Shown here piece after piece: positions 7,647 through 44,658 of a stretch of DNA of 64,000 nt (positions are counted from its first letter, which is position 1; each line of letters begins with the position of its first letter). The stretch covers positions 68,892-132,891 of the forward strand of contig CAYQMM010000001.1 of the NCBI GenBank assembly GCA_964418675.1, in the 5' to 3' direction. Both the position numbers and the translations under genes were made by a program. The notes beneath the pieces were generated by a model. That model ran no database searches and was not told the DNA's origin. It saw only the letters and a list, made by a program, of their open reading frames with translations. This DNA is from an uncultured Candidatus Bathyarchaeia archaeon (GTDB lineage Archaea; Thermoproteota; Bathyarchaeia; Bathyarchaeales; Bathyarchaeaceae).

Positions 7647-7762
7647 TTCTCAACCATTGAACTTAAACGGCTCCTCAATTTAAATCATTTTATACGCCAG
7701 AAGTTAAGCTAAAAAATTTTTTAAGGATAGTCAAGTGCATTGGCGGGAATTCGCTTCCCTTA

Positions 7763-25054: not shown

Positions 25055-25055
25055 A

Positions 25056-27950: not shown

Positions 27951-28649
27951 ATGAGCGAAAAGAAGGCTTTTGAAGCATTATCCAGTACATCAAGACTTGA
28001 AATTTTGAGTTTACTTTATAAAAAGCCTTTGTGTGTTGAGGAAATAGCGAAATTAGTGAATCTGAAACCAATTACTATACGTCATCATCTGCAGTCTTTG
28101 AAAAATGCTGGTTTCATAGAAAGTTATGAAAAACGTAGAGGGGCTGTGGGAAGACCAAAAGTTTACTATCGGATTGCAAAAGAGCCTACGCGAGTGGTTT
28201 ATCCTAAACGTCGCTATCTAACCCTAGCCACCCTTGTGATAAGAGCTCTTCCATTATTGATAGGACCAAAGAGAGCGGGTAAATTCTTGGAAAAGATTGG
28301 AAAAAACATGGGCGAAAGCGTAATAGCAGACATTAGCAATAAACATAAAACAAAAGTTTGGTCTTTCGAAGATTTTAAAGAATTATTCATCAAAGGATAT
28401 CTCCAAGAAGACGGGGCAGAACCAGAAATTGTGAAGACCGATGAGAATTCGGTTGTGTATCGTACTCACAACTGTCTTTTTCTTGAACTTGCTGTTAGAA
28501 TGCCAGAAATGATGTGTGACGTTCTACATGAGGCATTTCATGAAGGTACCTCTAATGCCTTGGGTGGAAAGTTGAAAATAACCCGGTTGACATGCCAGGG
28601 ACACGGCGACCCCTACTGTGAACATCACTGCGTGTGGAATGTTTCTTAA
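27951..28649 (+). CDS. Transcriptional regulator, ArsR-type winged helix plus C-terminal V4R-like ligand-binding domain
   Basis: 232 aa. N-terminal SRLEILSLLYKKPLCVEEIAKLVNLKPITIRHHLQSLKNAGFI. C-terminal pattern C...MMCDVLHEAFHEG...LTCQGHGDPYCEH resembles the V4R signature. Confidence 0.65.
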   Translation: MSEKKAFEALSSTSRLEILSLLYKKPLCVEEIAKLVNLKPITIRHHLQSLKNAGFIESYEKRRGAVGRPKVYYRIAKEPTRVVYPKRRYLTLATLVIRALPLLIGPKRAGKFLEKIGKNMGESVIADISNKHKTKVWSFEDFKELFIKGYLQEDGAEPEIVKTDENSVVYRTHNCLFLELAVRMPEMMCDVLHEAFHEGTSNALGGKLKITRLTCQGHGDPYCEHHCVWNVS

Positions 28650-30710: not shown

Positions 30711-31007
30711 AATTGCGCGCGCCAAAAAACAATAACATTCTTTGCATTTTCCTCTTTTTCAATTCCTTCTAAATCCTCTAGCATTTTGCTGAAAGTCTTG
30801 TACCATGATTCCTCTACGTTAAACACTAAAAAACGAGAATTTTAATTTGAAAACATCCTCTCATAGGTTTGATGGGACGGTTCTCTTAGCTATTGAGAGG
30901 TCCGGGATATTTTTTATGATGAAACTCATAAAAATGATAGCAAAAGTATAAATAGTATTATTTATTTGATAGAAATCTCCAAATAAACTTGGTCAAAGTG
31001 GTTTGGA

Positions 31008-31583
31008 ATGGAAAAAGAAGTGATAATTGATTTTGGTGATCTCGATCCGAACTTTAAATATGAGGTTTCTAGTCAACCCGGTGGTGAAAACGTAAAGCAA
31101 TGTTTTCATTGTGGTATTTGTGCCGTTTCATGCCCCGTAAGGAGAATCGACAATGACTATAACCCAAGAAAGATAATTAGAATGATTCTATACGGGATGA
31201 AGAAAGAACTGCTTTCCAGCGAAACCATATGGAAGTGCGTTCACTGTCATACCTGCTACGAACGATGTCCTCAAAATGTGAAGTTTGCTGAGGTTGTTGA
31301 GGCCTTAAAGATTCTTGCAATAAGAGAACTAGAAAAAGGGAACATCGAGATTAAGGGATCAACGTTCTTGTTTGATTCAACCTTCACAGACAGCATAAAA
31401 CATCATGGGCGAGTATTCGAGACGGGTCTAATTGTGAGGTACATGCTGAAAAGGAAGAACCTGAAATTTATGCTGTCGTATTTTCCTCTTGGGTTAAAGA
31501 TGGCTTGGAAAAGAAAACTAAAGCTGTTTCCGAATAAAGTCAAAGATCTTAAGGAAATAGATAAATTATTCAAAGAAACTTAG
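31008..31583 (+). CDS. hdrC: HdrC-like 2x[4Fe-4S] subunit
   Basis: 191 aa; CFHCGICAVSCP and CVHCHTCYERCP. Confidence 0.8.
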   Translation: MEKEVIIDFGDLDPNFKYEVSSQPGGENVKQCFHCGICAVSCPVRRIDNDYNPRKIIRMILYGMKKELLSSETIWKCVHCHTCYERCPQNVKFAEVVEALKILAIRELEKGNIEIKGSTFLFDSTFTDSIKHHGRVFETGLIVRYMLKRKNLKFMLSYFPLGLKMAWKRKLKLFPNKVKDLKEIDKLFKET

Positions 31584-31594
31584 GTGGTGCGAAA

Positions 31595-32458
31595 GTGAAG
31601 GTTTCTTATTATCCAGGATGTTCGCTTGAATCTTCTGCAAAAGAGTATCAAATATCCGCAAACGCTGTTTGCCAGAGGCTAGATATAGAACTCGTAGAAA
31701 TTGAAGATTGGAATTGTTGTGGTGCCCTAGAAGTTAGTTCACTGAACCCGTTGCTTTCGTTGGCTCTACCAGCGAGAAATTTGAAAATCGCGTCCGAAGA
31801 GTCCGATAAGCTGGTGGTAACATGCAACGCTTGTTTGAACAATCTTGTTAAAGTCCAGTGGAAGCTTTTCAAGAATGGAGAGCTAAGAAAAAAGATAAAT
31901 CAACTTTTAAACCACGAATTTCGTGAAATAAAAATAAAGCATCTTCTAGATTTGATTTTGAATGATATAGGTCTGGAGAAGGTAAAAGAGAACGTAAAAA
32001 AACCGCTCAAAGGGTTAAAAACCGTTTCCTATTACGGCTGCCTGATAGTTAGACCATCCAAAATCCTCAATTTTGACGATCCAGACGACCCCGAGTTACT
32101 CGATAAACTCGTCTTAACTTTAGGGGGAAACCCCCTAGAGTTCTTCAGCAAAACAAAATGTTGCGGCGGTGGTTTACTCATGTCAAATCAGGACATGTCT
32201 CTGGAATTAACAAAAGAGATAATCGCCGAGGCGGCAGAACGTGGAGCACAATGTATTACGGTTACTTGTCCCCTTTGCCATATGGCACTTGAAACCTTAC
32301 AACATAAGGTTATGGCGAAAATAGGGAGCAAACGCAAGATACCCATCCTTTATTTTACGCAACTCATGGGGCTCTCATTTGGCGTCCCTCCAAAGGAGTT
32401 AGGTCTTCACAAAAATATGATTTCCGCGAAACCAGTAATTGATTTTGTCAATAGATAA
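31595..32458 (+). CDS. hdrB: HdrB-like subunit with two intact CCG domains
   Basis: 287 aa, GTG start after TAGGTGGTG. PGCSLES...WNCCGA...TCNACLN and YYGCLIVRP...KCCGGG...TCPLCHM. Confidence 0.85.
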   Translation: MKVSYYPGCSLESSAKEYQISANAVCQRLDIELVEIEDWNCCGALEVSSLNPLLSLALPARNLKIASEESDKLVVTCNACLNNLVKVQWKLFKNGELRKKINQLLNHEFREIKIKHLLDLILNDIGLEKVKENVKKPLKGLKTVSYYGCLIVRPSKILNFDDPDDPELLDKLVLTLGGNPLEFFSKTKCCGGGLLMSNQDMSLELTKEIIAEAAERGAQCITVTCPLCHMALETLQHKVMAKIGSKRKIPILYFTQLMGLSFGVPPKELGLHKNMISAKPVIDFVNR

Positions 32459-32460
32459 GA

Positions 32461-35400
32461 TTGGTGGTACTTGTGGAGCCTGTGGGTGCTGTAGCTGTAG
32501 TCGGTGGGGGGATCTCTGGGATATATGCAGCTCTCGAACTTGCAGATTCAGGTTTTAAAGTATATCTAATTGAGGGTAGCCCCACCATTGGGGGAAGAAT
32601 GCTTCAACTCGACAAAACATTTCCAACAAATGATTGCGCTATCTGCATTTTGGCTCCTAAGTTGGCTGAGGTTTCGCGGCATCCAAACATAGAGTTATTC
32701 ACATACTGCGAATTGCTGTCTGTTACTGGGAAGGCAGGAGATTTCGAAATCGAATTGCACAAGAAAGCGAGGTTTGTGGACGAGCGAAGATGCACAGGGT
32801 GTGGAACATGCTCCTCTAAGTGTCCAGTAAAAATTCCAGATGCAATGAATGAGAACATCAACCTAACAAAGTGTATAAGAATTGCCCTCCCCCAAGCAGT
32901 TCCCCTCGTCGCCCTAATTGACAAGGAAAAGTGTCTTTACTTCACCAAAAATGTTTGTCGAATATGCGAGAAAGTATGCGAAGCCAAGGCTGTGGACTTC
33001 ACCCAAAAAGACAAAAAAGTCCGATTGAAGGTTGGAAGCATTATCATTGCTGCTGGCGCAGAGGCATACAACCCCACATTCGAAACAGTATTGAATTATA
33101 AGCATGAAAATGTAGTTACATCCACGGAATTTGAGAGGCTTTTAAGCGCAAGTGGACCTACAAAGGGGTCCATAATCAAGCCTTCAGATGGCACAAAACC
33201 AAAGAAGATTGGTTTTATTCAGTGTGTTGGGTCGAGAGACCCTAGTATGGGTAGGGAATTGTGCTCCGCCGTCTGCTGTATGTACGCAACAAAAGAAGCT
33301 ATAGTAGCAAAAGAGCATGACCCAGAACTAGACGAGTACATATTTTTTATAGATCTGAGGGCTTATGGGAAGGGGTTTGAAGAGTTTGCGAAAAGAGCTG
33401 AGGACGAATATAACATCAAATACATCAGGTGCAAGGATGTTGAGGTAAAAGGGAATATAAACAGTGATTTGCTAACAATCCACTATGAGGACCCAAAAGA
33501 CAACCAATTCAAGACTATCGACCTCGATCTTGTAGTTCTTTCAGTCGGATTGAAACCACATAAATCGCTGAAAACACTTGCCAAAATGTTGAATCTGGAG
33601 CTGAATGAATACGGTTACGTGAAAACAAGCCTTGATAAACCGATGGAGACTAACATCGAAGGTGTGTATGTTTGTGGAACAGCTCAAGGTCCAAAGGACA
33701 TACCGGATTGTGTAGCACAGGCATGTGGAGCTGCTGCAAAGACTAAGGCTCTACTTTCTTCTACGAGAAACCAGTTAACCATTGAGAAAGTATTTCCAAA
33801 AGAACGCAAGATAGCGGAAGAGCCCAGAATAGGTGTGTTTGTTTGTAACTGCGGCATAAACATTGGGGGGGTCGTAAATGTACCTGAAGTGGTCAAATAT
33901 GTTAGCACGCTAGACAATGTTATTCACTGTGAAGAAAACCTTTACACATGCTCGCAGGAAACGCTGGAAAGAATAAAAGAGGTCATAGAAAAAAGGGAAT
34001 TGAACAGAATCATAGTTGCATCGTGCACTCCAAGAACTCATGAACCTCTCTTCCAAAACACCTTGAGGGAAGCCGGTTTAAACCCCTATCTCTTTGAATT
34101 CTGTAACATCCGCGAACAATGCTCTTGGGTGCACATGAATCAAAAAGAAAGAGCTACGGAGAAGGCTAAGAATCTCATCGAAATAGCGGTTGCCAAGGCA
34201 AAATTGTTGACGCCACTCCAAAGACGAATGACCCCCATTACTCAGAAGGCGCTGGTGTTGGGCGGAGGCATTTCTGGGATGACTGCAAGCCTAGATATTG
34301 CGAATCAAGGGTTCGAAGTTTTTCTCGTTGAAAAAAACACTACACTGGGAGGGTTTATCAAGAACCTATGGCAAATCCAAGGTGGAACTAGGACATCTGA
34401 TATCCTAGAAGAAATTGTTCGAAAAGTGAAGAGTAATCCGCGGATAAAGATATTCTTCGAATCAGAAGTGAAAGCAGTTACAGGTCATGTCGGTGACTTC
34501 AAGGCAACAATAACTACTCCGAAAGGCTCTGAGGAAATTGAATTTGGAACCGCCATCATCGCTGTTGGAGCCGACGTTCTTGTACCAACAGGATACTACC
34601 ATTATGGAGAAAACGATAGAATAATCATTCAAAAAGACTTGGAACAGATGTTTGAGAAAGGTTTCAACGCAAAGGCTGTTGTCATGATCCAGTGTGTCGG
34701 TTCTAGGGAAAATGAAGGTAGAACCTACTGCTCAAGGGTTTGTTGTAGTGAAGCCATAAAGAATGCAATAAACATTAAGAAGATGAGTCCAGAAACGGAC
34801 GTGTATATACTATACAAAGATGTTAGGGCATATGGAATCTGGGAGACCATTTACAACACCGCGAGAAGTATGGGCGTAGTTTTCATTAGGTATACAGACG
34901 AACACAAACCATCCGTAGACCCTGAAAATCTATCCGTTACAGTTGATGAACTCCTATTGAAGGAAAAGTTGATACTCCACCCAGATTATGTGGTTCTGAG
35001 TAGCGCAATAACTTCACGTGAGGACTACGAAAAAATAAGCAGACTATTCAAGGTTCCTCTGGACCCCAACGGTTTCTTTTTGGAGGCTCATGTGAAGCTT
35101 AGGCCTGTTGACTTTGCAACGGATGGGGTGTTTGTTTGTGGAACCGCCCATTATCCGAAGATGATATACGAGAGCATAGCGCAGGCGAGCGCAGCGGCGT
35201 CAAGAGCTACTACAATCCTCTCAAAGGATTATAGTGAAAGCGAGGTGATCATCAGCCGCGTGACAGATAAAGAAAAATGTATAGGCTGCGAACTTTGTGT
35301 GTTTTTATGTCCATTCAACGCTGTCGAAATTGGTGACGATGGAAAAGCAGAAGTTATTTTGGCGGCATGCAAAGGTTGTGGTATTTGCACCGCGTCATGC

Positions 35401-35481
35401 CCAGAAAAAGCAATCAGCATTACCCATTTCACTGATGAACAACTCGTATCGCAGATAAGGGCGGCGAAGGTGATCTCATGA
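32461..35481 (+). CDS. hdrA: Tandem-fused HdrA-like flavoprotein (two thioredoxin-reductase-like FAD modules in one chain), copy 1
   Basis: 1006 aa. Module 1: VVGGGISGIY, FPTNDCAICIL, inserted ferredoxin CTGCGTCSSKCP / CRICEKVC, CVGSRD...CSAVCCMYATK. Then an HdrA N-terminal-type Cys domain in mid-chain (RIGVFVCNCGINIGG, ASCTPRTHE, REQCSWVH). Module 2: LVLGGGISGMT, CVGSRENEGRTYCSRVCC. C-terminal CIGCELCVFLCP / CKGCGICTASCP. Confidence 0.85.
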   Translation: MVVLVEPVGAVAVVGGGISGIYAALELADSGFKVYLIEGSPTIGGRMLQLDKTFPTNDCAICILAPKLAEVSRHPNIELFTYCELLSVTGKAGDFEIELHKKARFVDERRCTGCGTCSSKCPVKIPDAMNENINLTKCIRIALPQAVPLVALIDKEKCLYFTKNVCRICEKVCEAKAVDFTQKDKKVRLKVGSIIIAAGAEAYNPTFETVLNYKHENVVTSTEFERLLSASGPTKGSIIKPSDGTKPKKIGFIQCVGSRDPSMGRELCSAVCCMYATKEAIVAKEHDPELDEYIFFIDLRAYGKGFEEFAKRAEDEYNIKYIRCKDVEVKGNINSDLLTIHYEDPKDNQFKTIDLDLVVLSVGLKPHKSLKTLAKMLNLELNEYGYVKTSLDKPMETNIEGVYVCGTAQGPKDIPDCVAQACGAAAKTKALLSSTRNQLTIEKVFPKERKIAEEPRIGVFVCNCGINIGGVVNVPEVVKYVSTLDNVIHCEENLYTCSQETLERIKEVIEKRELNRIIVASCTPRTHEPLFQNTLREAGLNPYLFEFCNIREQCSWVHMNQKERATEKAKNLIEIAVAKAKLLTPLQRRMTPITQKALVLGGGISGMTASLDIANQGFEVFLVEKNTTLGGFIKNLWQIQGGTRTSDILEEIVRKVKSNPRIKIFFESEVKAVTGHVGDFKATITTPKGSEEIEFGTAIIAVGADVLVPTGYYHYGENDRIIIQKDLEQMFEKGFNAKAVVMIQCVGSRENEGRTYCSRVCCSEAIKNAINIKKMSPETDVYILYKDVRAYGIWETIYNTARSMGVVFIRYTDEHKPSVDPENLSVTVDELLLKEKLILHPDYVVLSSAITSREDYEKISRLFKVPLDPNGFFLEAHVKLRPVDFATDGVFVCGTAHYPKMIYESIAQASAAASRATTILSKDYSESEVIISRVTDKEKCIGCELCVFLCPFNAVEIGDDGKAEVILAACKGCGICTASCPEKAISITHFTDEQLVSQIRAAKVIS

Positions 35482-36263
35482 AAGAAGAGAATGATGAAAA
35501 AGATTTTGAACCCTTGATAATTGCGTTCTTATGTAACTGGTGTTCCTACGCGGGAGCAGATTTTGCCGGGGTTTCGAGGTATCAGTATCCCACAAGCATA
35601 AGGATCATTAAGGTTATGTGTAGCGGTAGAGTTGACCCGTTCCTAATTTTTGAGGCATTTCGTGATGGCGCCGACGGCGTTTTGGTGGCTGGATGCCACC
35701 TAGGAGACTGCCACTATATATCGGGTAACATCGAGGCGCAGCAGAAGATGAAATATGTTGTAAGAGCTATCGAAAGAAGCAAGATTCCTCTACAACGATT
35801 TAGATACAAATGGATCTCTGCGTCGGAAGGAAAGCTTTTTGCGGCGACTATTGCCGAGTTTACTGAGGAACTGAAAAAATTAGGGCCTATTTCCAAGGAA
35901 GTCATAGACGGCGTTCCTACCCTGGATAAGATAGTTGCTGCTGAAAATGAGTTCTTAGACTTCACAGTAAGGTGGATGATAGGTAAAGAGAAAATACTTT
36001 TAGAGGAAGGGAATGTTTATGGAGAGGCGCTCGATCCCGACCATTTAACAAATATAGTCAACGAAGTTGTAGACACAAAATATCTGAAATTTCTTATTCT
36101 GAGGATGATCAAGGATACGCCGCTCTCAGTTGCCGATCTTTCGGAAAAACTGGAAATTGAACCGAGAGAGACCTTCGACTGCTTAATGCAGTTGAAAAAT
36201 GAAGGATCCGTCGGTATAGTTGGCTTCAAGGATGATTATCCCATTTTTCAAGTAATAAGGTGA
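35478..36263 (+). CDS. mvhD: MvhD-like [2Fe-2S] subunit with about 120-aa C-terminal extension ending in a winged-helix-like segment
   Basis: 261 aa. Core FLCNWCSYAGADFAG...VMCSGRVD...GCHLGDCHY. Tail LILRMIKDTPLSVADLSEKLEIEPRETFDCLMQLKNEGSV. Confidence 0.8.
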   Translation: MKEENDEKDFEPLIIAFLCNWCSYAGADFAGVSRYQYPTSIRIIKVMCSGRVDPFLIFEAFRDGADGVLVAGCHLGDCHYISGNIEAQQKMKYVVRAIERSKIPLQRFRYKWISASEGKLFAATIAEFTEELKKLGPISKEVIDGVPTLDKIVAAENEFLDFTVRWMIGKEKILLEEGNVYGEALDPDHLTNIVNEVVDTKYLKFLILRMIKDTPLSVADLSEKLEIEPRETFDCLMQLKNEGSVGIVGFKDDYPIFQVIR

Positions 36264-36271
36264 ATTATCAT

Positions 36272-39200
36272 ATGAAAGGTTCTGTGCTGGTCGTAGGTGG
36301 GGGAATAGCCGGGATTCAAGCATCCTTGGATCTCGCAGATTCAGGTTTCAAAGTTTACCTTATCGATCAAAAACCTAGCATAGGAGGAACCATGCCTCAG
36401 CTGGACAAGACGTTTCCAACAAACGACTGTGCCATGTGCATTTTGTCACCAAAACTGGTTAACACATACAGGCATCCGAACATAGAAATAATAGGTAACG
36501 CTGACATCATTGATTTTAGTGGTGCTCCAGGGGATTTCAAGGTAAAACTGTTGAAAAGACCGAGATACGTCGACCCTGAAAAATGCAACGGTTGTGGAGA
36601 ATGTGCACAATCTTGTCCGGTTAGGGCTCTCGATGCCTTCAACAGAAATCTCAGTAAGAAAAGCGCCATATCCGTGATGTATCCCCAAGCAGTTCCCCTC
36701 GTTTACTCCATCGACAGAAACGCATGCATTGGATGCGGACTTTGCGAGAAAGTCTGCAAAAGAAAAGCTATAGATTACGACCAGCAGACTAGCCCAACTG
36801 AATTGAACGTTGGAGCCGTCATTCTCGCAACTGGTGCAGGACTTTTTGATCCGTCAACCATGAAAAAATATGGGTATCACTATGCAGATGTGATTACGAG
36901 CGCTGAGTTTGAAAGAATTTTAAGCGCCAGCGGCCCCTACGGAGGTGTCGTCCTTCGTCCTTCAGACGGAAAAAGACCTAAAACCATTGGGTTTATTCAA
37001 TGTGTCGGCTCGAGGAACCCTAGCATTGGTAGGGAATTGTGCTCCGCCGTCTGCTGTATGTACGCAACAAAAGAAGCTATAGTAGCAAAAGAACACGACC
37101 CAGAACTGGACATAACAATCTTCTACATAGACTTACGCGCTTTTGGGAAGGGATTCGAAGAATTTACTGAGAGGGCAATGAGAGAATATGGCATAAAATA
37201 CGTAAGGTGTGAAGTTCCAGAGGTATCTCTCAATAAAGACAAGAGTGGTCTCACAGTTTTCTACGAAGACCCCGTTACTAATGAACTTAAAAGCATGGAT
37301 TTAGATTTACTTGTTCTCTCAGTGGGATTGACCCCTCCCAGCACGCTTCTTTCGCTCAAAGAAATTATGGGTTTGGAACTAAACGATTTCGGATATGTGA
37401 ATACTAGACTAACCAGTCCCGTAGAAACTAATATTACAGGGATATATGTTTGTGGCGCATCCCAAGGACCAAAGGACATTCCTGATTCAGTTGCACAGGC
37501 GAGCGCAGCAGCTGCAAAGGCAGAGGTGCTTCTATCTTCTGCAAGGAATCAGCTGATTACAACTAAGGAGTATCCGAAAGAGAAGGCTATTCCAGAAGAA
37601 CCAAGAATTGGGGTTTTCGTTTGTCACTGTGGCATAAACATCGGAGGAATAGTGGACGTCCGAGAAGTGGTCGAATACGTGAAAAAATTACCATATGTGG
37701 TTCATGCAGAGAGAAACCTATACACGTGTTCTCAGGACACCCAGGAAAGAATAAAGGAAGTCATAATAGAAAAGAATTTGAACCGGGTTATAGTCGCATC
37801 TTGTACTCCGAGAACTCATGAATCCATCTTCAGGAACACTTGCAGAGAAGCTGGTTTAAACCAATATCTTTTCGAGTTCTGCAACATTAGGGAGCAGTGT
37901 TCATGGGTTCACATGAGGGATAAGAAGAGTGCGACAGAAAAAGCAAAAGATATCCTTAGGATGGGTGTTGCAAGGGCTAGATTTTTGAAGCCTCTTGAAA
38001 CTAAGTTAATTTCTGTAAAGAAGAGTGCTCTGGTCATTGGTGGTGGCATTTCAGGGATGACGGCGAGCTTGGATATTGCAAATCAGGGCTTCGAAGTCTA
38101 TCTTATAGAAAAGCGAGATCAGCTCGGCGGATTTGTACGAAATATAGAAGAGATGCAGGATGGAACCAAGGCAATTGAAATCCTTGAAGAAATAATAAAG
38201 AAGGTTGAAAATCACCCAAAAATCAGAGTATTCAAGAATTCAGAGGTCATGGAAGTCGAAGGTTTCGTCGGAAACTTTAAGGCAAAAATCAACACGGAAA
38301 GAAAAGTGGAAGAAGTGGAATTTGGAGCAGCGATAATTGCGGTTGGGGCGGAGATGCTAGAACCCCAAGGTCTCTTTCACTATGGAGAAAGTAACAAAAT
38401 CATTACTCAAAAAATGTTGGAACCTATGATAACAGGAAAATGGATGTGGGATGAAAAGAGGGGTGTAAAGACTGTTGTTATGATCCAATGTGTAGGTTCC
38501 AGGGACGAAAATAGACCGTACTGTTCCAGAGTTTGTTGTACAGAGGCAATAAAAAACGCTATCAGAATTAAGAAACTAAACCCTGACACTGAAGTCTACA
38601 TACTGTACCGGGACATACGTGCATACGGGCTGTGGGAAGCACTATACAGAGAGGCAAGAGACCTTGGAGTAATCTTCTTGAGTTATACTAATGAAAATAG
38701 CCCTTCGGTTAATCCAAAGAATTTGACAGTTGAGATATATGATCCAATGTTCAATTCGAAATTGAGATTGAGGCCAGACCTCATAGTTCTGAGTAGCGCA
38801 ATAGTGCCGAGAGACGATTATGATGAACTAAGCAAAATTTTCAAGGTTCCTCTGGACCCCAACGGTTTCTTTTTGGAGGCTCATGTGAAGCTTAGGCCTG
38901 TTGACTTTGCAACGGATGGGGTGTTTGTTTGTGGAACCGCCCATTATCCGAAGATGATATACGAGAGCATAGCGCAGGCGAGCGCAGCGGCGTCCCATGC
39001 CTGCACAATATTATCGAAGGATTGCATAGAATCTGAAGGTGCCGTCGGGGTGGTTGATGAGGAGAAATGTAAGGGATGTGGCATTTGTGTTGAGATTTGT
39101 CCCTTCAAGGCAATAGAACTTCAGCCCGAGGAAATGATCCTAGAGAAGGTTAAGTTCCTAACAAGGAAGGCGTATATTAACCCCATAACCTGCAAGGGCT

Positions 39201-39367
39201 GTGGATCCTGTGCAGTAGCATGCCCCGTCGGAGCAATAACACCTCAGCACTTTTCAAAACAACAAATCGAGGCAAGCTTACAAGCAGCCATCATAAAATC
39301 TCAAGAGACCGCGGATTTACTCTCCGTACCAATGGTCGAAAAAACTCAAAAAAGTTCGGGTAGTTAA
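36272..39367 (+). CDS. hdrA: Tandem-fused HdrA-like flavoprotein, copy 2
   Basis: About 1031 aa. ATG 36272 is preceded by AGGTGA; GTG 36260 is an alternative. Same domain order as copy 1 (VVGGGIAGIQ, FPTNDCAMCIL, CNGCGECAQSCP, CVGSRN...CSAVCCMYATK, RIGVFVCHCGINIGG, LVIGGGISGMT, CVGSRDENRPYCSRVCC, CKGCGICVEICP / CKGCGSCAVACP). Confidence 0.85.
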   Translation: MKGSVLVVGGGIAGIQASLDLADSGFKVYLIDQKPSIGGTMPQLDKTFPTNDCAMCILSPKLVNTYRHPNIEIIGNADIIDFSGAPGDFKVKLLKRPRYVDPEKCNGCGECAQSCPVRALDAFNRNLSKKSAISVMYPQAVPLVYSIDRNACIGCGLCEKVCKRKAIDYDQQTSPTELNVGAVILATGAGLFDPSTMKKYGYHYADVITSAEFERILSASGPYGGVVLRPSDGKRPKTIGFIQCVGSRNPSIGRELCSAVCCMYATKEAIVAKEHDPELDITIFYIDLRAFGKGFEEFTERAMREYGIKYVRCEVPEVSLNKDKSGLTVFYEDPVTNELKSMDLDLLVLSVGLTPPSTLLSLKEIMGLELNDFGYVNTRLTSPVETNITGIYVCGASQGPKDIPDSVAQASAAAAKAEVLLSSARNQLITTKEYPKEKAIPEEPRIGVFVCHCGINIGGIVDVREVVEYVKKLPYVVHAERNLYTCSQDTQERIKEVIIEKNLNRVIVASCTPRTHESIFRNTCREAGLNQYLFEFCNIREQCSWVHMRDKKSATEKAKDILRMGVARARFLKPLETKLISVKKSALVIGGGISGMTASLDIANQGFEVYLIEKRDQLGGFVRNIEEMQDGTKAIEILEEIIKKVENHPKIRVFKNSEVMEVEGFVGNFKAKINTERKVEEVEFGAAIIAVGAEMLEPQGLFHYGESNKIITQKMLEPMITGKWMWDEKRGVKTVVMIQCVGSRDENRPYCSRVCCTEAIKNAIRIKKLNPDTEVYILYRDIRAYGLWEALYREARDLGVIFLSYTNENSPSVNPKNLTVEIYDPMFNSKLRLRPDLIVLSSAIVPRDDYDELSKIFKVPLDPNGFFLEAHVKLRPVDFATDGVFVCGTAHYPKMIYESIAQASAAASHACTILSKDCIESEGAVGVVDEEKCKGCGICVEICPFKAIELQPEEMILEKVKFLTRKAYINPITCKGCGSCAVACPVGAITPQHFSKQQIEASLQAAIIKSQETADLLSVPMVEKTQKSSGS

Positions 39368-39381
39368 TAAGGTATCCAAGT

Positions 39382-40404
39382 TTACGTGATTTCTTCGGAT
39401 TTTAGGATTATGTCAACTTTGGCTGCTGCACAACTTCCCTGTGCAATAGAGTAAGCGATGTCTTTTAACCCGCTAGCTGCACCGGCTACAAAAACACCTT
39501 TTACGTTTGTGCCAACTGGCCTTTCGACTACCTGAAAAAATCCTGAATCCGATAACTCGAGATTCAACTTATCCTTGAAAAAAACAGTAGCTGGATCAGG
39601 AACTCCGCCGGTAGAAAGTACCACAAGGTCGGACTCGAGGAAAACTAAATCATTCTCTAATGTATCTTCCACCTGAACCAAAAAAGCATCCTTGACTTTC
39701 CGGACTCTAGCAGGTTTTCCTCTGAGAAATCGGACGCCCAACAGTCTAGCATTATTATAGTCAAACTCGCCTTTATATGGAGCTCTTATGTCCATATACA
39801 ATATGGTTATCATCATTTCTGGGTGCATTTTTTTGATCTGCTGTGCGAACTTAATGGCATACATGCAGCAAAAGGAGGAGCAGTAGGTATTCGTATTGTT
39901 GTCCCTTGAGCCGACACATTGGATTATAGATATGGAAGTTGGTCTCTTCAAATCTGAAGGTCTTACGAGGTTTCCCTTCTTGACCATTTCTTCCAACTCC
40001 AAAGAGGTTACCACATCCTTATATTTGCCATATCCATACCGCCTCAAAGGTGAAGGGTCATAAGGTTTGAACCCAATAGCCAAGACAACGGCATTGACAC
40101 CTAGGCTCTTTTCCTCATTTAAACTCTTCACTTTAACCTTGAACTCTGGAAATTTTCCTGTAACGTCCAGAATTTCAGAGTTCTTCACGACCGTGATGTT
40201 CTCCTTGTCCTCAATCTCGCTCAAAAGGCTCGAAAGCAGATCCGATGCCTTCTCACCCGTTGGGAAGAGTTCACCTAGGTTCTTCAGGTTTCCTCCAAGT
40301 TGGTGCTCTCTCTCGACCAGAAAAACATGGTGTCCAAAGTCTGCGAGATCCAGTGAAGCTTGAAGACCCGCAACTCCAGAACCAACCACTAATACTCTAC
40401 TCAT
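39382..40404 (-). CDS. hdrA: Minimal HdrA-like FAD/[4Fe-4S] protein (thioredoxin-reductase-like core only)
   Basis: 340 aa; VLVVGSGVAGLQ, IQCVGSRDNNTNTYCSSFCCMYAIK. No N-terminal Cys domain, no ferredoxin inserts, and no FPTxDCxxC cysteines (LFPTGEKASD instead). Confidence 0.8.
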   Translation of the reverse strand: MSRVLVVGSGVAGLQASLDLADFGHHVFLVEREHQLGGNLKNLGELFPTGEKASDLLSSLLSEIEDKENITVVKNSEILDVTGKFPEFKVKVKSLNEEKSLGVNAVVLAIGFKPYDPSPLRRYGYGKYKDVVTSLELEEMVKKGNLVRPSDLKRPTSISIIQCVGSRDNNTNTYCSSFCCMYAIKFAQQIKKMHPEMMITILYMDIRAPYKGEFDYNNARLLGVRFLRGKPARVRKVKDAFLVQVEDTLENDLVFLESDLVVLSTGGVPDPATVFFKDKLNLELSDSGFFQVVERPVGTNVKGVFVAGAASGLKDIAYSIAQGSCAAAKVDIILKSEEIT

Positions 40405-40834
40405 TCATAGCACCAACGGTTTTTCGCATAGGATTAGGTTCTAACTCTTTCAACTCGTCCGTAAATTCTCTAATCACGCTTGCGAATTTCGGTCCTTCAG
40501 AAGCAGATATCCACTCCAGTCTTAATCTTTTGGCTTCAAACCCCACATATTCTAAGGCTTTCATCGTTTCCCTTATCCTCTTTTCAGTTTTGTAGTTGCC
40601 TTCAATATAGTGGCAGTCACCTAGATGGCAGCCTGCAACGAGAACTCCGTCTGCTCCCCTGAGAAAAGCTTTCAAAATGAAGGCTGGATCAACTCGACTT
40701 GAGCACATCACTCGTATTATCCTTATTGTAGGAGGATATTGAATTCTACTAACCCCTGCTAAATCTGCCCCCGCGTAGGAACACCAGTTACATGCAAAAA
40801 CCACAATTCTCGGTTCAAACTCGTTCCTAGTCAT
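40397..40834 (-). CDS. mvhD: MvhD-like [2Fe-2S] subunit
   Basis: 145 aa; FACNWCSYAGADLAG...VMCSSRVD...GCHLGDCHY. Confidence 0.85.
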   Translation of the reverse strand: MTRNEFEPRIVVFACNWCSYAGADLAGVSRIQYPPTIRIIRVMCSSRVDPAFILKAFLRGADGVLVAGCHLGDCHYIEGNYKTEKRIRETMKALEYVGFEAKRLRLEWISASEGPKFASVIREFTDELKELEPNPMRKTVGAMNE

Positions 40835-40841
40835 TAATTAA

Positions 40842-41903
40842 TCACCTTTTGTCAATTAATTCTGTCAAGAAAACCGTTAGATCTTTAACATCAATGTCAA
40901 AATCTTTTATCGGCGGTTTTTCATTCTTCACGCAATTCAGATGCGCATAACATTTTGGGCACGCAGTAATTAGCGTCTTTGAATCTGTATCTATTGCCCT
41001 TTCCAGTTTTTCCACCATTAGAAACTTGCCCTCTGGATTACATGAAATCCACGCAGATACCCCACAACATTGTGCATCTTCCCTGGACTCATCAAGTTCT
41101 TTGAATGTGAGACCTTTCACTTTTGACAGCACATTTCTAGGTGCATCATACACTCCCATGTGTCTGCCAAGCCTACATGGGTCATGGTATGTGACTGTGG
41201 TGCCGTTGGTTTCAATGTCTAATTTATCCCTGTTTTTCTCAAGTATTTGGGATATGTGTTTTATCTCCAAGTCAAGTTCGTAATCTTTTGAAAATGTTCT
41301 GAAACATTCTGCGCAAGAGGTGACGAGAGTTTTGATACCGCTTTCATTTATTTTTGCTTCATTGTACTTTCTTAGTGCATTGAAAGTAGCGTTATAGCCC
41401 TGCCAGAGTGCGTCGTGCCCGCAGCATTTTAAGGATAAAATTCTGGGTTTGATATCAATTAGGTTTAGTAGCGTGATGCTTGACTCACCGATCGCATGGA
41501 AATCTACGCCGACATCTAAAAAACAGTCAAAAAAGTCGAGACAGCCAGGGAAATAAGCAATGTCACTGTTTTGATCTATTTCTCCTTTGAAGTCTGTAGG
41601 CACTCCATGAGCATCAGGATATTTCGTCATGATTTCGCAGATAAGTGAAAAAATTGATTTATGAGCGATTACTTCTTCATCAACCTCTTGGTTTCTCAGG
41701 TCTCGAACAAAGTCTACGTAGTTAACCTCTTGTGGGCAGTACTGTGAACAAAGTCCGCAGGTAAGACATTCCCACGAGACCTCTCTTTTATTCTCCAATA
41801 GAAACTTGTTAATTTTGAAGCGAGGGGAATACTTAGAAATCCGCCTTCTTGGGCAAATTCCTGTGCACAGCCCGCATTGGTAACAACTATTTATCAGCGA
41901 CAT
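40842..41903 (-). CDS. Fused HdrC/HdrB-like protein (HdrD/GlpC-like): 2x[4Fe-4S] plus two CCG domains
   Basis: 353 aa. N-terminal CYQCGLCTGICP, CLTCGLCSQYCP. Then FPGCLDFF...KCCGHD...SCAECFR and HDPCRLGR...QCCGVS...ACPKCYA. Confidence 0.8.
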   Translation of the reverse strand: MSLINSCYQCGLCTGICPRRRISKYSPRFKINKFLLENKREVSWECLTCGLCSQYCPQEVNYVDFVRDLRNQEVDEEVIAHKSIFSLICEIMTKYPDAHGVPTDFKGEIDQNSDIAYFPGCLDFFDCFLDVGVDFHAIGESSITLLNLIDIKPRILSLKCCGHDALWQGYNATFNALRKYNEAKINESGIKTLVTSCAECFRTFSKDYELDLEIKHISQILEKNRDKLDIETNGTTVTYHDPCRLGRHMGVYDAPRNVLSKVKGLTFKELDESREDAQCCGVSAWISCNPEGKFLMVEKLERAIDTDSKTLITACPKCYAHLNCVKNEKPPIKDFDIDVKDLTVFLTELIDKR

Positions 41904-42915
41904 GTATTCCCCTCAAGAGTTTGTTTATTTGAGATGCGACAGCACCCGCCTGCGCTAGAGAATAGTCTATATCTTTTGGGCCACAGGCTGCACCTACCAC
42001 AAAAACTCGATTTGCATCTGTACCCAAAGGTCTATTGTGAACCTTGAAAAACCCCGTACCGTCCAATGAAACCTTCATCATCTGACTTAACTCCTCTGTT
42101 TCTGGAGGAGGAATTCCCCCAACGGACAGAACGACCAAGTCAGATTCAATGCTGTGCGGTTCGCTCGTCAAAGTGTCCTCGAAATTGAGGACTAATTTAT
42201 TATCTTTTTCGAAAATTTCTGCTGGTCTAGCCCTAATGAACTTCACGCCGATGTTTCTAGCATCCAAATATAGATTCTCATAGAGGTAAGGGGTTCTGAT
42301 GTCCATGTACATAACCCTTACTTCTATGTCAGGATATTCTCTTTTAATAAGAAGTGCATTTTTCACAGCTAGAGTACAACAAAAATAGGAACAATATCTA
42401 TATGCCTGAGCATCTCTAAATCCAACGCACTGAACAAATGTTACCGATTTGGGCTTCTCAGAGTTCGAGGGTCTTATCAGCTTTCCTTCTTTCATCACTC
42501 TTTCCAGGTCTACTGAAGTTATCACATCTCCATACCTGTTGTATCCATATTCCGTCTTTTCTGTTGGATCATAAGGAACAAAGCCTGTTGCAAGAACTAT
42601 TGCATCAACGTCGAAGGTGTCATGCTTACCTGCGGCGTCGATTGTAACTCTGAAAGCACGGGCTTTTTCTTCAAACTTGCAGAGAGTTGAATCCGTCAGG
42701 ATTGATATGTTATCGTGTGTTTTTGCTTTTTCCTTGAAGGTGGAGAGAAATTCCTCTGCTCTCTCGTTTGTAGGAAGGATTTTGTATAGATTCTTCAGAT
42801 TGCCTCCTAGTTCTCCTTCCTTCTCGACTAGGTATACCCGATGGCCCATATTAGCTAAGTCTAATGAAGACTGAACCCCAGCGATACCGCCGCCTACCAC
42901 CAACACTCTACCCAT
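41887..42915 (-). CDS. hdrA: Minimal HdrA-like FAD/[4Fe-4S] protein (thioredoxin-reductase-like core only)
   Basis: Start at ATG 42915 (MGRVLVVGGGIAGVQ), overlapping the hdrB stop in ATGGGTAG. VQCVGFRDAQAYRYCSYFCCTLAVK. The ORF-track 5' extension lies inside hdrB. Confidence 0.8.
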   Translation of the reverse strand: MGRVLVVGGGIAGVQSSLDLANMGHRVYLVEKEGELGGNLKNLYKILPTNERAEEFLSTFKEKAKTHDNISILTDSTLCKFEEKARAFRVTIDAAGKHDTFDVDAIVLATGFVPYDPTEKTEYGYNRYGDVITSVDLERVMKEGKLIRPSNSEKPKSVTFVQCVGFRDAQAYRYCSYFCCTLAVKNALLIKREYPDIEVRVMYMDIRTPYLYENLYLDARNIGVKFIRARPAEIFEKDNKLVLNFEDTLTSEPHSIESDLVVLSVGGIPPPETEELSQMMKVSLDGTGFFKVHNRPLGTDANRVFVVGAACGPKDIDYSLAQAGAVASQINKLLRGIHVADK

Positions 42916-43783
42916 TGGAAACCCCCAGTTTCTCCAAGAATTTATCCGTGGGTATCTTGTGGATAACGTTAAGTCCGAGGTCCTTTGCGTCAAATCCGAG
43001 AGCCAGCCCAAGAAGTTCGGCATAAAAGAGTATGGGAACGTTCAATTCTTTGTTGAACTTCTTTTTGGCGACAACTTGTCCAATATCGAACTGTTTGAAA
43101 CAGAATGGACAACCGACCACTATTGCATCGACCACGCCTTTTCTTTCAATAGACTCTATTGCCAATAACTGTGCGGCATCTAAATCACAAAGTGACAGAA
43201 CCGATCCACAACATTGTTCGGTCCCCACCGGCCTAACAATTCTGGCTCCTGTTAATGCCACAAGTTCTTCAAGTTTCTTCGGGTTTTCGGGGTCATCGAA
43301 TCCAAGAACATCGCTTGGTCTGAGGATGTGGCAACCATTATGACAGGAGACAGATATGTCATTCAAGTTAAAAACTATCTTTTCCTTAATCTTTGAAGGC
43401 CCAACGATATCGTACATCAGTTGGTGAAAGTGAAACACCCGTGATTTTCCTTTGTAGGATAGACCTATTTTTTTCAGAGTCTTGTCGACTCTATTTCTCA
43501 GATAAGTGTCTCTTAGCGCGAAAATTGCTTTATTCAATGAAGAGAAACACCCGTTACACAAAGTTAAAATGTCTAGACCCTCCTTCTCCGCTAGGGCAAT
43601 ATTTCTCGCAGAGAAAACTAGGGATGTGTAATAATCCATAGCTTCTGTAAGCTCACCGCAACAACCAAAATCCGCGATGTCTACAAGCTTAATCTTAAAG
43701 GCATCTGCAATTTTCCTGACCGAAGCTTCATAATTGTAAACCTGAGTTGGAACATTACACCCGAGAAAAAATGCAAGCTTCAT
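42908..43783 (-). CDS. hdrB: HdrB-like subunit with two intact CCG domains
   Basis: 291 aa; LGCNVPT...FGCCGE...LCNGCFS and CHNGCHILRP...QCCGSV...GCPFCFK. Confidence 0.85.
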   Translation of the reverse strand: MKLAFFLGCNVPTQVYNYEASVRKIADAFKIKLVDIADFGCCGELTEAMDYYTSLVFSARNIALAEKEGLDILTLCNGCFSSLNKAIFALRDTYLRNRVDKTLKKIGLSYKGKSRVFHFHQLMYDIVGPSKIKEKIVFNLNDISVSCHNGCHILRPSDVLGFDDPENPKKLEELVALTGARIVRPVGTEQCCGSVLSLCDLDAAQLLAIESIERKGVVDAIVVGCPFCFKQFDIGQVVAKKKFNKELNVPILFYAELLGLALGFDAKDLGLNVIHKIPTDKFLEKLGVSNG

Positions 43784-44247
43784 CGGACCAGCTCCGCCAA
43801 TCCGGTTATTTTAGCGATTTCCTTAAAGTCCTTCGAAACATCTGCTTTCAGTTCTGGCAGCCCCAAACCCCCTCTTTTTTGCGCAGTAAATTTAGTGATG
43901 TCACTACTGCGACCTACGGCTAGAATTTTCTTATTTCCTTCCTTCAGAGATGACGGGACAGATCCATTTTGCGATATAAGATTTGTTATGGAATGTACAA
44001 CTTCAATTGGCTTGATTTCTTGAGGGCATCGCTCATAACATATATAGCAAGTGAGGCAGTACCAGAGGAATTTATTGTTAATATCAATTCTGTTTTCTTT
44101 TTTATGTTTGACTATTTTTCTTATATTGTATTCAGGGACCAGCCTTGTAACCGGACATCCACCAGTGCATGTTCCACACTGATAACATAGATGGAGATTA
44201 TCCATATTATGATTCTCATTTATTTCATTCGAGGAACCTTTGTCCAT
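43780..44247 (-). CDS. hdrC: HdrC-like 2x[4Fe-4S] subunit
   Basis: 155 aa; CYQCGTCTGGCP and CLTCYICYERCP. A TTTATATC TATA-like box lies about 16 nt upstream of ATG 44247. ATG 44205 is an alternative start. Confidence 0.8.
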   Translation of the reverse strand: MDKGSSNEINENHNMDNLHLCYQCGTCTGGCPVTRLVPEYNIRKIVKHKKENRIDINNKFLWYCLTCYICYERCPQEIKPIEVVHSITNLISQNGSVPSSLKEGNKKILAVGRSSDITKFTAQKRGGLGLPELKADVSKDFKEIAKITGLAELVR

Positions 44248-44658
44248 TTCGGATCCCTAATTAGATATAAACCATCATAATTATCGTAATATTAAGACTT
44301 TCGTTTTCCCCCTTTCCGTCGGCGAAGTCGCGATAGGAGCCAAATGGAGAAAGAATTTCTGGAACCATTTATATGCATGTCCAATCCAGTAGAAAAGGCG
44401 GGGAGAATGGTTGGCTAAGCGACAAACGGATATCTGTGGTTGCGTTTTTGAGGTTCAACAGGGCATAATGGTTTGCATCAAGCGCTGTCCAAAACATAGC
44501 AGACCTAAGCCAAAGCGTCCCTTCAGACCCAAGGCTGAATGTGTCAGACCCTAAACACAAAGCTCTGCCGTTCCACCTGAGAGAGGGAGATTCCTACCGT
44601 CGAATCAGAGATTTTTTTAATGGGAGGGAGAAATATAACCTAACGGATACGAATAAAG

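Follow-up and report, generated by a model that had tools for sequence, protein, structure and literature searches.

An MvhD-type [2Fe-2S] adaptor with a conserved ArsR/SmtB-like winged-helix extension, encoded between two long hdrA genes: a probable docking module

Introduction

Complexes built on fused-dimer HdrA abound in methane-oxidising archaea, Bathyarchaeia, Thermoplasmata, sulfate reducers and Firmicutes. Which subunits they contain, and what donates and accepts their electrons, is largely a matter of guesswork. One gene in a 64,000-nucleotide stretch of DNA from an uncultured Candidatus Bathyarchaeia archaeon (hereafter the window, meaning the whole stretch analysed) raises a specific question about such complexes. 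It encodes an MvhD-type adaptor that runs on, past the end of the canonical domain, into a segment resembling a transcription factor. Does this extension bind DNA, or does it hold the adaptor in place within an enzyme? A first-pass annotation of the locus had put forward both redox-linked DNA binding and docking.

Results

The adaptor gene is coupled to two long hdrA genes

The gene, here called mvhD-ext, belongs to an hdr cluster with the following members and neighbours:

31008..32458, + strand: hdrC-like (191 aa) and hdrB-like (287 aa, CCG domains) genes at the head of the same cluster (Pfam)
32461..35481, + strand: upstream long hdrA, 1006 aa, predicted fused HdrA dimer
35478..36263, + strand: mvhD-ext, 261 aa plus stop, ATG start; MvhD core followed by the extension
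36260..39367, + strand: downstream long hdrA, 1035 aa if started from the GTG at 36260 (Pfam, junction sequence)
40397..40834, - strand: short free MvhD with no extension, 145 aa (PF02662, E=6e-56), in the neighbouring hdr cluster

The reading frame, its position between the two long hdrA genes and the length of the free MvhD are as first annotated. At the upstream junction, the TGA stop of hdrA overlaps the mvhD-ext start codon in the sequence ATGA. The mvhD-ext stop either overlaps the start of the downstream hdrA or lies 10 nt from it, depending on the start codon used; an ATG at 36273 with a GGTGA Shine-Dalgarno sequence ahead of it is a more likely start than the GTG. Translational coupling of this kind to both hdrA genes is typical of stoichiometric subunits.

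The two flanking HdrA proteins share 60% identity and have two FAD-binding Rossmann units apiece, which Pfam places near aa 11 and aa 594 in the upstream protein. Each also aligns with the ~650-aa HdrA structures in three matched stretches. Judged by sequence, both are fused HdrA dimers in a single polypeptide. The free MvhD is 62% identical to the core of the extended protein, with the alignment ending at LGP137, and is likely the second MvhD of the module. No NuoE/F/G-like or AOR-type gene was detected by Pfam in the cluster (31008-44247). Gene order in two related loci (L001 and L002) is identical to that of this hdrC/hdrB-headed cluster. Elsewhere in the window, an FrhB-like gene accompanies an HdrA-MvhD fusion in a cluster at 21179-26153, and a bona fide ArsR regulator is encoded separately (27951-28649).

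The N-terminal region is an intact MvhD/FlpD domain

The first-pass annotation placed a complete MvhD core in the first ~135 aa of the protein, in agreement with our profile analysis:

35517..35885, + strand: MvhD/FlpD [2Fe-2S] adaptor core, aa 14-136 (PF02662; Cys19, 22, 48, 73 and 78)

PF02662 matched this region over the entire model (positions 1-123 of 123; E=6.3e-50; 168.8 bits against a cut-off of 22.3). The motifs CNWCSY, VMCSGRV and GCHLGDCHY, as well as the C-terminal sequence quoted in that annotation, are all present in the translation, and Cys19, 22, 48, 73 and 78 (CNWC, MCSGR, GCH and DCHY) are invariant in 99 aligned homologues. AF2 modelled the full-length protein with a pLDDT of 89.3 and a pTM of 0.86, and Foldseek matched the core to 5odc_D, the MvhD of the Mvh-Hdr complex (E=6e-15, TMt 0.89, rmsd 1.3 Å), and to 8rvu_F (TMt 0.94). 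By profile, cysteines and predicted fold, the core is an intact MvhD/FlpD domain, with a putative role in binding a [2Fe-2S] cluster and transferring electrons to HdrA. Foldseek matches of the whole model to lumazine-synthase flavodoxin-like folds were spurious, and the other matches were mostly to the MvhD core. Since the core swamped the whole-model search, the extension was remodelled alone.

The extension combines a conserved linker with an ArsR/SmtB-type winged helix

The extension (EXT) spans aa 138-261, approximately 125 residues, and comprises a helical linker followed by a winged helix:

35889..36035, + strand: EXT part 1, helical linker and loop, aa 138-186, with predicted helices 148-160 and 162-176 (AF2)
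36003..36026, + strand: EEGNVYGE signature motif, aa 176-183, with N179 and V180 at least 90% conserved
36036..36260, + strand: EXT part 2, predicted ArsR/SmtB-type winged helix, aa 187-261 (profile, AF2, Foldseek)

Of the 120 best-matching database clusters, at least 119 retain the whole of EXT. Conservation within it peaks in part 1, at A154, R165, G169, N179 and V180, and the linker carries a near-invariant motif, R..G..EEGNVYGE. Used as an exact peptide pattern, EEGNVYGE retrieved 33 confirmed loci in archaeal and bacterial genomes. Part 1 matched no PDB fold or Pfam family in searches with Pfam, with the family profile against the PDB and with Foldseek. The first ~50 residues of EXT, its best-conserved part, had gone unmentioned in the first-pass annotation. 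An origin of EXT as a read-through or frameshift artefact is ruled out by its full-length conservation across phyla and by its own conserved motifs.

Part 2 is predicted by AF2 to fold as a helix, a short strand, a helix-turn-helix and a β-hairpin wing, with a long H1 (187-210), H2 (218-225), a recognition helix H3 (229-241) and the wing at 245-259. Against PDB sequences, the EXT family profile matched PH1932 (E=1.7e-8), HlyU (E=2.7e-7) and CzrA, SmtB and NmtR (1e-4 to 1e-3). When EXT alone was submitted to Foldseek, the top matches were winged-helix proteins, which dominated the top 50, and HlyU, CzrA and SmtB were returned at probability 1.0. As a single sequence, the EXT of the window reached Pfam HTH_5, MarR_2 and PF0610-like_N only below threshold (E 0.01-0.3), scoring 12.3-13.7 bits for HTH_5 (cut-off 22) and 11.9-13.5 bits for MarR_2 (cut-off 27), whereas some relatives exceed the HTH_5 or HTH_20 thresholds in precomputed Pfam hits. 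Family profiles were used to settle the winged-helix identity because Pfam and NCBIfam were sub-threshold on the window sequence alone. The C-terminal winged helix of ArsR/MarR type, previously read from the sequence pattern, is thus recovered by family profile, structure prediction and Foldseek alike, and it clearly descends from DNA-binding ArsR-type domains.

The best Foldseek TM-scores were obtained with small Z-alpha winged helices (TMt 0.80-0.85), and Cys235 lies in the recognition helix. Both could be taken to indicate an accessory domain for a ligand or nucleic acid, such as CoA or a thiol cofactor, RNA or a Z-form, that would recruit substrate or localise the complex. We regard this as very improbable: the Z-alpha matches reflect size and a generic winged-helix fold (E about 1e-2), the sequence profile favours the ArsR family instead, no ligand-binding motif is found family-wide, and Cys235 is confined to one clade.

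The extension follows long HdrA across archaea and bacteria

A profile search at E<=1e-10 recovered the MvhD-EXT architecture in 247 clusters (clustered at 50% identity) from at least six archaeal and at least three bacterial lineages, and full-length homologues in database clusters are 42-94% identical to the window protein. The architecture is not rare but common in databases, where the JGI auto-annotation names some members '.../predicted transcriptional regulator'. The earlier suggestion that such an extension is not a described feature of MvhD therefore needs qualifying, all the more so as an April 2026 preprint reports a winged helix on the MvhD-like adaptor BamF (bioRxiv 10.64898/2026.04.10.717634).

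Gene neighbourhoods were strongly conserved. An HdrA of at least 900 aa, the size class of the ~1000-aa fused dimer, is encoded directly downstream of the EXT gene in 31/39 loci, counting only EXT genes with enough downstream DNA, and an HdrA-like gene precedes the EXT gene in 32/42. The downstream long hdrA is a conserved partner gene of EXT. A recurring pattern consists of an extended MvhD, a long HdrA and a short MvhD; short MvhDs devoid of EXT occur in the same loci as EXT genes, and most related loci have one behind the long HdrA.

EXT also takes part in gene fusions and fissions. Fusions include HdrA-MvhD-EXT (810 aa), polyferredoxin-MvhD-EXT (508-528 aa) and a 1737-aa chain, HdrA-MvhD-EXT-Fer4-GltD/NfnB-like, in which EXT lies centrally. 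In one locus (L007), the core is joined to the upstream HdrA and EXT forms a separate ORF; in another (L031), a stand-alone EXT immediately precedes a 1140-aa HdrA, with no MvhD core adjacent. Selenocysteine variants occur among the relatives as well, with a TGA at the Cys73 position in Desulfobacterales, and shortened ORF calls suggest Sec at position 19 in a TA06/NC10 clade.

These fissions bear on whether EXT might simply fold onto its own MvhD core, stabilising or shielding the [2Fe-2S] site, for example by gating partner access, and contact no other subunit. The pTM of the full-length model fits such a cap, as does the pLDDT of the linker, which is 86-97 in the presence of the core versus 42-85 for EXT alone and so suggests packing of the linker against the core. 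However, this gap may stem from alignment depth (99 versus 27 sequences), EXT persists as a separate ORF in L007 and L031, in the latter with no core beside it, and EXT is strictly tied to a downstream long HdrA rather than to MvhD cores generally, which points to an intermolecular partner. We therefore judge a purely intramolecular role rather unlikely.

The DNA-reading face is acidic or neutral in the window and its clade

A further reading makes the protein a redox-sensing transcription factor, whose [2Fe-2S] core would sense the redox state of Hdr while the ArsR-type winged helix binds operators and autoregulates the hdr clusters. It draws on the homology to ArsR/SmtB-family repressors, on the relatives that pass HTH_5 or HTH_20, on the JGI name, on the stand-alone EXT ORFs and on those relatives with a basic winged helix (net charge up to +8, with recognition helices such as RHIVAMRRRG). 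In the window, however, the winged helix has a net charge of -3 and a pI of 4.8, the recognition helix carries -2 and the wing 0, and an acidic or neutral recognition helix (FDCLMQLKNEG) and wing (VGFKDDYP) are shared by its clade. The C-terminal α5 helix through which ArsR proteins dimerise is absent from the AF2 model, in which the protein ends two residues past the wing. Conservation is highest in the linker rather than on the DNA-reading face, the gene lies mid-operon with translational coupling to two enzyme subunit genes, EXT sits mid-chain in the 1737-aa enzyme, and the bona fide ArsR gene of the window is a separate one.

Nor do the intergenic regions contain notable operator-like palindromes: 30711-31007 and 44248-44658 yielded a single AT-rich inverted repeat of 8 bp along with short imperfect repeats, none above shuffled expectation, and promoter and terminator scans likewise returned nothing above shuffled expectation. 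On this evidence, transcriptional regulation by EXT is unlikely.

Discussion

A probable docking role within an Hdr-like complex

We propose, with moderate confidence, that mvhD-ext encodes the [2Fe-2S] adaptor of an Hdr-like, flavin-based bifurcating complex with fused-dimer HdrA, in which EXT serves for docking or bridging and not for DNA binding. Of the two functions originally suggested, we favour docking over redox-linked DNA binding because of the acidic recognition helix and wing, the missing dimerisation helix, the enzyme fusions, the HdrA synteny and the precedent of BamF. Docking is further consistent with a linker motif, not the recognition helix, being the best-conserved part of EXT, with translational coupling on both sides, with HdrA synteny that crosses phyla and with the fusions and fissions of EXT. 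Against it stand the ArsR-type descent of the winged helix, its basic character in some relatives and the stand-alone EXT ORFs, which could in principle be regulators.

In the proposed arrangement, the MvhD core would plug into one redox partner, for which the fusion cases suggest either the HdrA encoded upstream or a module of ferredoxin type. EXT would anchor the adaptor either to the long HdrA of the gene immediately downstream or to an adjacent module; that it docks, and on which surface, is inferred. Such anchoring might fix the geometry of the electron path, by analogy with the BamF winged helix, which acts via BamI.

A broader proposal is possible, though we hold it only tentatively: linker and winged helix could be the signature of an unnamed, prokaryote-wide class of Hdr-type supercomplexes in which the extended MvhD tethers two flavin-based bifurcation modules. 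In the window these would be the two fused-dimer HdrAs; in other cases an HdrA would be joined by Flx-, FrhB- or NfnB-like modules. If so, the coupling of two modules recently discovered in class II benzoyl-CoA reductase would exemplify a general principle of design instead of being an exception. In a still more novel variant, the winged helix would moonlight as a redox-dependent DNA binder too.

An extended adaptor that is conserved and easily recognised, together with the pattern of extended MvhD, long HdrA and short MvhD, can help to predict which modules are connected to one another, and mvhD-ext is a concrete construct for pull-downs or cryo-EM. Our findings also guard against annotating such proteins wrongly as transcriptional regulators. 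Should a docking role be confirmed, what was observed for BamF would hold for a broad family and not just for a single specialised enzyme.

Comparison with known systems

The window protein resembles the canonical adaptors MvhD, VhuD and FlxD (PF02662) of the Mvh-Hdr, Fdh-Hdr, Elp-Hdr and Flx-Hdr complexes in core fold, cysteines and association with HdrA, and its core is 50-55% identical to 5odc_D, 8rvu_F and 7bkb_F (rmsd 1.2-1.3 Å). Unlike it, all solved chains are 129-141 aa long and end where EXT begins, with neither linker nor winged helix. With the ArsR/SmtB regulators PH1932, HlyU, CzrA, SmtB and NmtR, EXT shares the predicted α-α-α-β-β winged-helix topology and a profile-level sequence similarity over ~58 residues. 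It differs from them in falling below the Pfam HTH_5 threshold in the window, in lacking the C-terminal dimerisation helix, in its acidic DNA-reading face and in occurring as a fused or embedded part of redox enzyme subunits.

Other Hdr systems provide further parallels. The HdrA-MvhD fusion cluster at 21179-26153 is reminiscent of Methanosarcina HdrA2, itself an HdrA-MvhD fusion. The long HdrAs of the window resemble ANME HdrA3/4 in exceeding 1000 aa and consisting of two fused HdrA units (PMC9012536). Chadwick et al. (2022) described how HdrA units are fused in ANME archaea, whose HdrA paralogues are fused or in tandem, and noted that MvhD occurs in the clusters; their passages on HdrA and MvhD mention no extension or winged helix on MvhD (PMC9012536).

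Literature on MvhD with a winged helix or C-terminal extension was limited, in our searches, to the class II benzoyl-CoA reductase preprint and an unrelated Methanothermobacter gene inventory. A word-indexed profile search, distinct from the one that recovered 247 clusters, matched 29 proteins, mostly truncated, without reaching BamF or a bam-type locus, and a homology search starting from a relative with putative Sec19 matched TA06/NC10 bacteria and no Geobacter. The contexts of five relatives (P0144, P0148, P0140, P0123 and P0303) were all HdrA, extended MvhD and long HdrA, with no bam cluster.

The closest parallel is BamF, the MvhD-like adaptor of the class II benzoyl-CoA reductase BamBCDEFGHI from Geobacter metallireducens, which is more than 100 aa longer than other MvhD adaptors, carries Sec19 and interfaces with BamI through its winged helix; its partner BamE is a fused HdrA dimer (bioRxiv 10.64898/2026.04.10.717634). 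We compared BamF, to which PDB entries 29QY, 29RC and 29RN belong, by its description only. Neither a BamGHI (HydABC-like) module nor a BamB/C tungsten enzyme is encoded in the window, and without a BamGHI-type partner the analogy is silent on what the winged helix would contact. The bam genes run bamE then bamF, whereas mvhD-ext precedes its hdrA, lying between two long hdrA genes and behind hdrC and hdrB. Two Rossmann-fold domains are described for BamF, whereas one is predicted in the window protein. The cluster-adjacent residue is numbered 19 in both, being cysteine in the window protein and selenocysteine in BamF. Both proteins nevertheless join an MvhD-type [2Fe-2S] core to an extension of more than 100 aa with a winged helix, and the HdrA partner of each is a single ~1000-aa chain made of a fused dimer, BamE in one case and the long HdrAs in the other. 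BamF is the only described precedent for an MvhD-like adaptor whose winged helix touches a partner subunit.

Architecture of the extended MvhD and its flanking genes

The extended MvhD of the window (mvhD-ext) and the free MvhD with which it was compared were delimited by ORF calling and translation.

35478-36263, + strand: mvhD-ext, 261 aa
40397-40834, - strand: free MvhD, 145 aa

PF02662 (FlpD/MvhD) spans residues 14–136 of the mvhD-ext protein over the full model (E=6.3e-50, Pfam), and the NCBIfam models for the MvhD-like C-terminus of HdrA2 and for VhuD match the same stretch. In the AlphaFold2 model, this core superposes on MvhD of the Mvh–Hdr complex (5odc_D) with a TMt of 0.89 and an rmsd of 1.3 Å (Foldseek). 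Aligned with the free MvhD, the core shows 62% identity and the match stops at LGP137, so that ~125 residues of the mvhD-ext protein are extra. The first-pass annotation, made from the sequence alone, had thus correctly described a complete MvhD core with all its quoted motifs (CNWCSY, VMCSGRV and GCHLGDCHY), about 120 further residues, a free MvhD of only 145 aa and a location between two long hdrA genes.

These flanking genes are paralogous (1006 and 1035 aa, 60% identical to each other), and because Pfam places two FAD-binding Rossmann units in each product, each is a fused HdrA dimer. Genes for hdrC-like and hdrB-like proteins precede the set (Pfam). The upstream hdrA stop and the mvhD-ext start share an ATGA overlap. 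For the downstream hdrA, the possible starts are a GTG (36260), which the mvhD-ext stop overlaps, and an ATG 10 nt past this stop. The latter, at 36273, follows a GGTGA Shine–Dalgarno-like sequence and is a more plausible start than the listed GTG.

Two further hdr clusters and a polymerase gene lie in the window:

21179-26153, + strand: third Hdr cluster, with an HdrA–MvhD fusion (796 aa, HdrA2-like), HdrC-like (210 aa), HdrB (295 aa) and FrhB/FdhB-like (369 aa) proteins
39382-44247, - strand: second hdr cluster, with hdrC-like (155 aa), hdrB (291 aa), short HdrA-like (378 aa), HdrB/C fusion (353 aa), MvhD (145 aa) and short HdrA-like (340 aa) genes
44659-47340, + strand: DNA polymerase of family B, 893 aa, immediately beyond the hdr region

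The arrangement of the third cluster is that reported for the F420-dependent HdrA2B2C2 of Methanosarcinales and ANME-2, and such a gene set would suit an ANME-2 or Methanoperedens-type archaeon. The second cluster is inverted relative to positions 13845–18650 of L001, the locus of a 78%-identical relative in which all 11 hdr/mvhD genes form one co-directional array; this looks like a local inversion with window breakpoints near 39370 and 44250. At the position of the DNA polymerase L001 carries another HdrA–MvhD fusion gene, and synteny therefore ends there.

The extension is a two-part module ending in a winged helix

The best 120 database clusters are 210–327 aa long (median 259) and 42–94% identical to the query, with a query coverage of at least 92% in all but one. 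In an alignment of 99 mvhD-ext homologues, conservation beyond the core falls into two segments: a linker, which carries A154, R165, G169 and the EEGNVYGE loop (residues 176–183), and a C-terminal block with I207, P215 and S217. Searched alone against Pfam, the window sequence gave only sub-threshold winged-helix matches. Against PDB sequences, the full-length family profile matched ArsR/SmtB-family structures at 4e-5, and an extension-only profile matched PH1932 (1.7e-8), HlyU (2.7e-7) and CzrA, SmtB and NmtR (1e-4 to 1e-3) over residues ~200–258.

AlphaFold2, run with this alignment (pLDDT 89.3, pTM 0.86), predicted helices at 148–160 and 162–176, a long helix at 187–210, helices at 218–225 and 229–241, and a β-hairpin at 245–259. 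With the model of the extension alone, Foldseek returned nearly only winged-helix proteins at probability 1.0, including HlyU, CzrA, SmtB, ZitR, Z-alpha and a eukaryotic/archaeal small-ribosomal-subunit winged-helix protein. The first ~50 extension residues matched nothing known in the Pfam, PDB-sequence profile or Foldseek searches. The extension (EXT, residues 138–261) is a conserved C-terminal module in two parts, a linker followed by an ArsR-derived winged helix. Profile searches and structure prediction, both proposed in the first-pass annotation, thus bear out its ArsR/MarR-type ending, but the extension is a two-part module.

A cysteine at residue 235 (nt 36180–36182) lies in the predicted recognition helix, within the motif F[DE]CL[MIV][QE]LK. 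Among the closest 18 in the alignment, the window's own sequence included, 16 keep it, and it is absent from the remaining family.

EXT is widespread and mostly precedes a long HdrA

EXT recurs widely: when its profile was run with HMMER over all 1.84 billion representatives, 821 clusters scored E≤1e-3, of which 247 reached ≤1e-10 and 32 reached ≤1e-30. Probing species-representative genomes for an exact EEGNVYGE peptide confirmed 33 loci, in archaea (Thermococci, Bathyarchaeia, Thermoplasmata/Methanomassiliicoccales, Odinarchaeota and Archaeoglobi) and bacteria (Anaerolineae, Desulfobacterales/Deltaproteobacteria and Bacillota/Clostridia). The closest relatives, at 78% identity in two MAG assemblies, share the window's gene order (hdrC, hdrB, long hdrA, mvhD-ext, long hdrA), which cytochrome-c maturation genes adjoin.

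Three Desulfobacterales genes (L012 7548–8318, L013 about 7560–8318 and L019 3049–3819) have an in-frame TGA at Cys73 (VLG*HPGDCHY) and are split by gene callers into ORFs of 72 and 117–149 aa; they probably encode selenoproteins. Many "truncated" database members (165–233 aa) probably likewise reflect Sec at Cys19, Cys73 or Cys78.

ORFs called in 40 loci and classed by phmmer against the window's Hdr proteins gave 48 EXT genes. Downstream DNA of at least 3.1 kb was available for 39 of these; in 31, the very next gene encodes an HdrA of at least 900 aa, and among the eight exceptions several have a long HdrA that is split by selenocysteine codons or frameshifts or was missed by the distance filter (L006, L011 and L037). 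An HdrA-like gene, canonical (~660 aa), split (440 + 570 aa) or long, precedes the EXT gene in 32 of 42 cases with upstream room. The position between two hdrA genes is therefore conserved with the module and not peculiar to the window. The long HdrA is usually followed by a short MvhD (129–155 aa) and then by a variable input module of Flx-like Fe-S/NAD-binding or FrhB-like proteins.

Fusions and fissions argue for docking rather than DNA binding

EXT ends an 810-aa HdrA–MvhD–EXT protein (P0150), lies mid-protein in a 1737-aa HdrA–MvhD–EXT–Fer4–GltD/NfnB-like protein (P0262) and follows polyferredoxin–MvhD in two proteins of 508–528 aa (P0216 and P0256). Core and EXT are separated in the Anaerolineae locus L007: the former is joined to the 1675-aa HdrA upstream, and the latter forms an ORF of its own (121 aa) ahead of the next HdrA. 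L031 has a free-standing EXT of 120 aa, flanked by hdrB and a 1140-aa hdrA. A 276–291-aa variant in Archaeoglobi (L032, L034, L035 and L036; genes near 7434–8297) combines an N-terminal 2×[4Fe-4S] ferredoxin, a degenerate MvhD-like core without CNWC and an EXT with EEGNVYGEK, and precedes a ~1000-aa HdrA and then a short MvhD. In these patterns the core goes with the partner upstream and EXT with the long HdrA downstream, which is difficult to square with a free transcription factor.

In L031 (926–6428, a deltaproteobacterial MAG), the EXT/long-HdrA pair lies directly 3′ of FolD and CODH/ACS (CdhC/CdhD-type) genes, which hints at a link to the Wood–Ljungdahl pathway.

The first-pass annotation had weighed docking against redox-linked DNA binding. 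For the latter, the winged helix averages a charge of +0.5 across the family (range -9 to +8), so that some members are basic, but that of the window is acidic (net charge -3, pI 4.8), with a recognition helix (RETFDCLMQLKNEG) of charge -2 and a wing (VGFKDDYP) of charge 0, a pattern common to its whole clade. In the model, the protein ends two residues past the wing and therefore lacks the C-terminal dimerisation helix of ArsR/SmtB, and the linker motif is more conserved than the DNA-reading face. No convincing operator palindromes were found in the two intergenic regions named as candidates (30711–31007 and 44248–44658), and promoter and terminator scans stayed at or below the shuffled expectation. 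The window also encodes a separate, bona fide regulator:

27951-28649, + strand: ArsR-family regulator, 232 aa (HTH_5 E=3e-12, above threshold)

Its gene, flanked by those for a polyprenyl synthetase and a UbiA prenyltransferase, precedes the hdr cluster by 2.4 kb. A redox-sensing DNA-binding role is thus improbable for the mvhD-ext protein, though basic or stand-alone EXT members may have one. The best-supported mechanism, and on balance a likely one given the fusions and the analogy with BamF, the MvhD-like adaptor of class II benzoyl-CoA reductase, is that EXT would serve as a docking or bridging element fixing the MvhD adaptor within the fused-dimer-HdrA complex.

Comparison with BamF

Among the PDB chains searched, MvhD never exceeded 141 aa, and a fused-dimer HdrA was absent. 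The keyword-matched passages of Chadwick et al (2022; PMC9012536) describe fused HdrAs of >1000 aa in ANME, with MvhD in their clusters, and make no mention of an MvhD extension. Literature searches for MvhD with a winged helix, helix-turn-helix, ArsR or C-terminal extension returned one relevant source, a preprint of April 2026 that presents class II benzoyl-CoA reductase as solved by cryo-EM (10.64898/2026.04.10.717634). The extended MvhD is common in databases, generically annotated and, as the first-pass annotation had supposed, essentially undescribed, with BamF in that preprint as the exception. As a marker, EXT is useful for recognising an uncharacterised class of Hdr complexes. In BamF, Sec19 stands in for the cluster-adjacent cysteine, which is Cys19 in the mvhD-ext protein (10.64898/2026.04.10.717634). 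Compared by description and not by extension sequence, BamF resembles the mvhD-ext protein in architecture and partner type; unlike BamF, the latter has no Sec19, and the window no BamGHI partner module.
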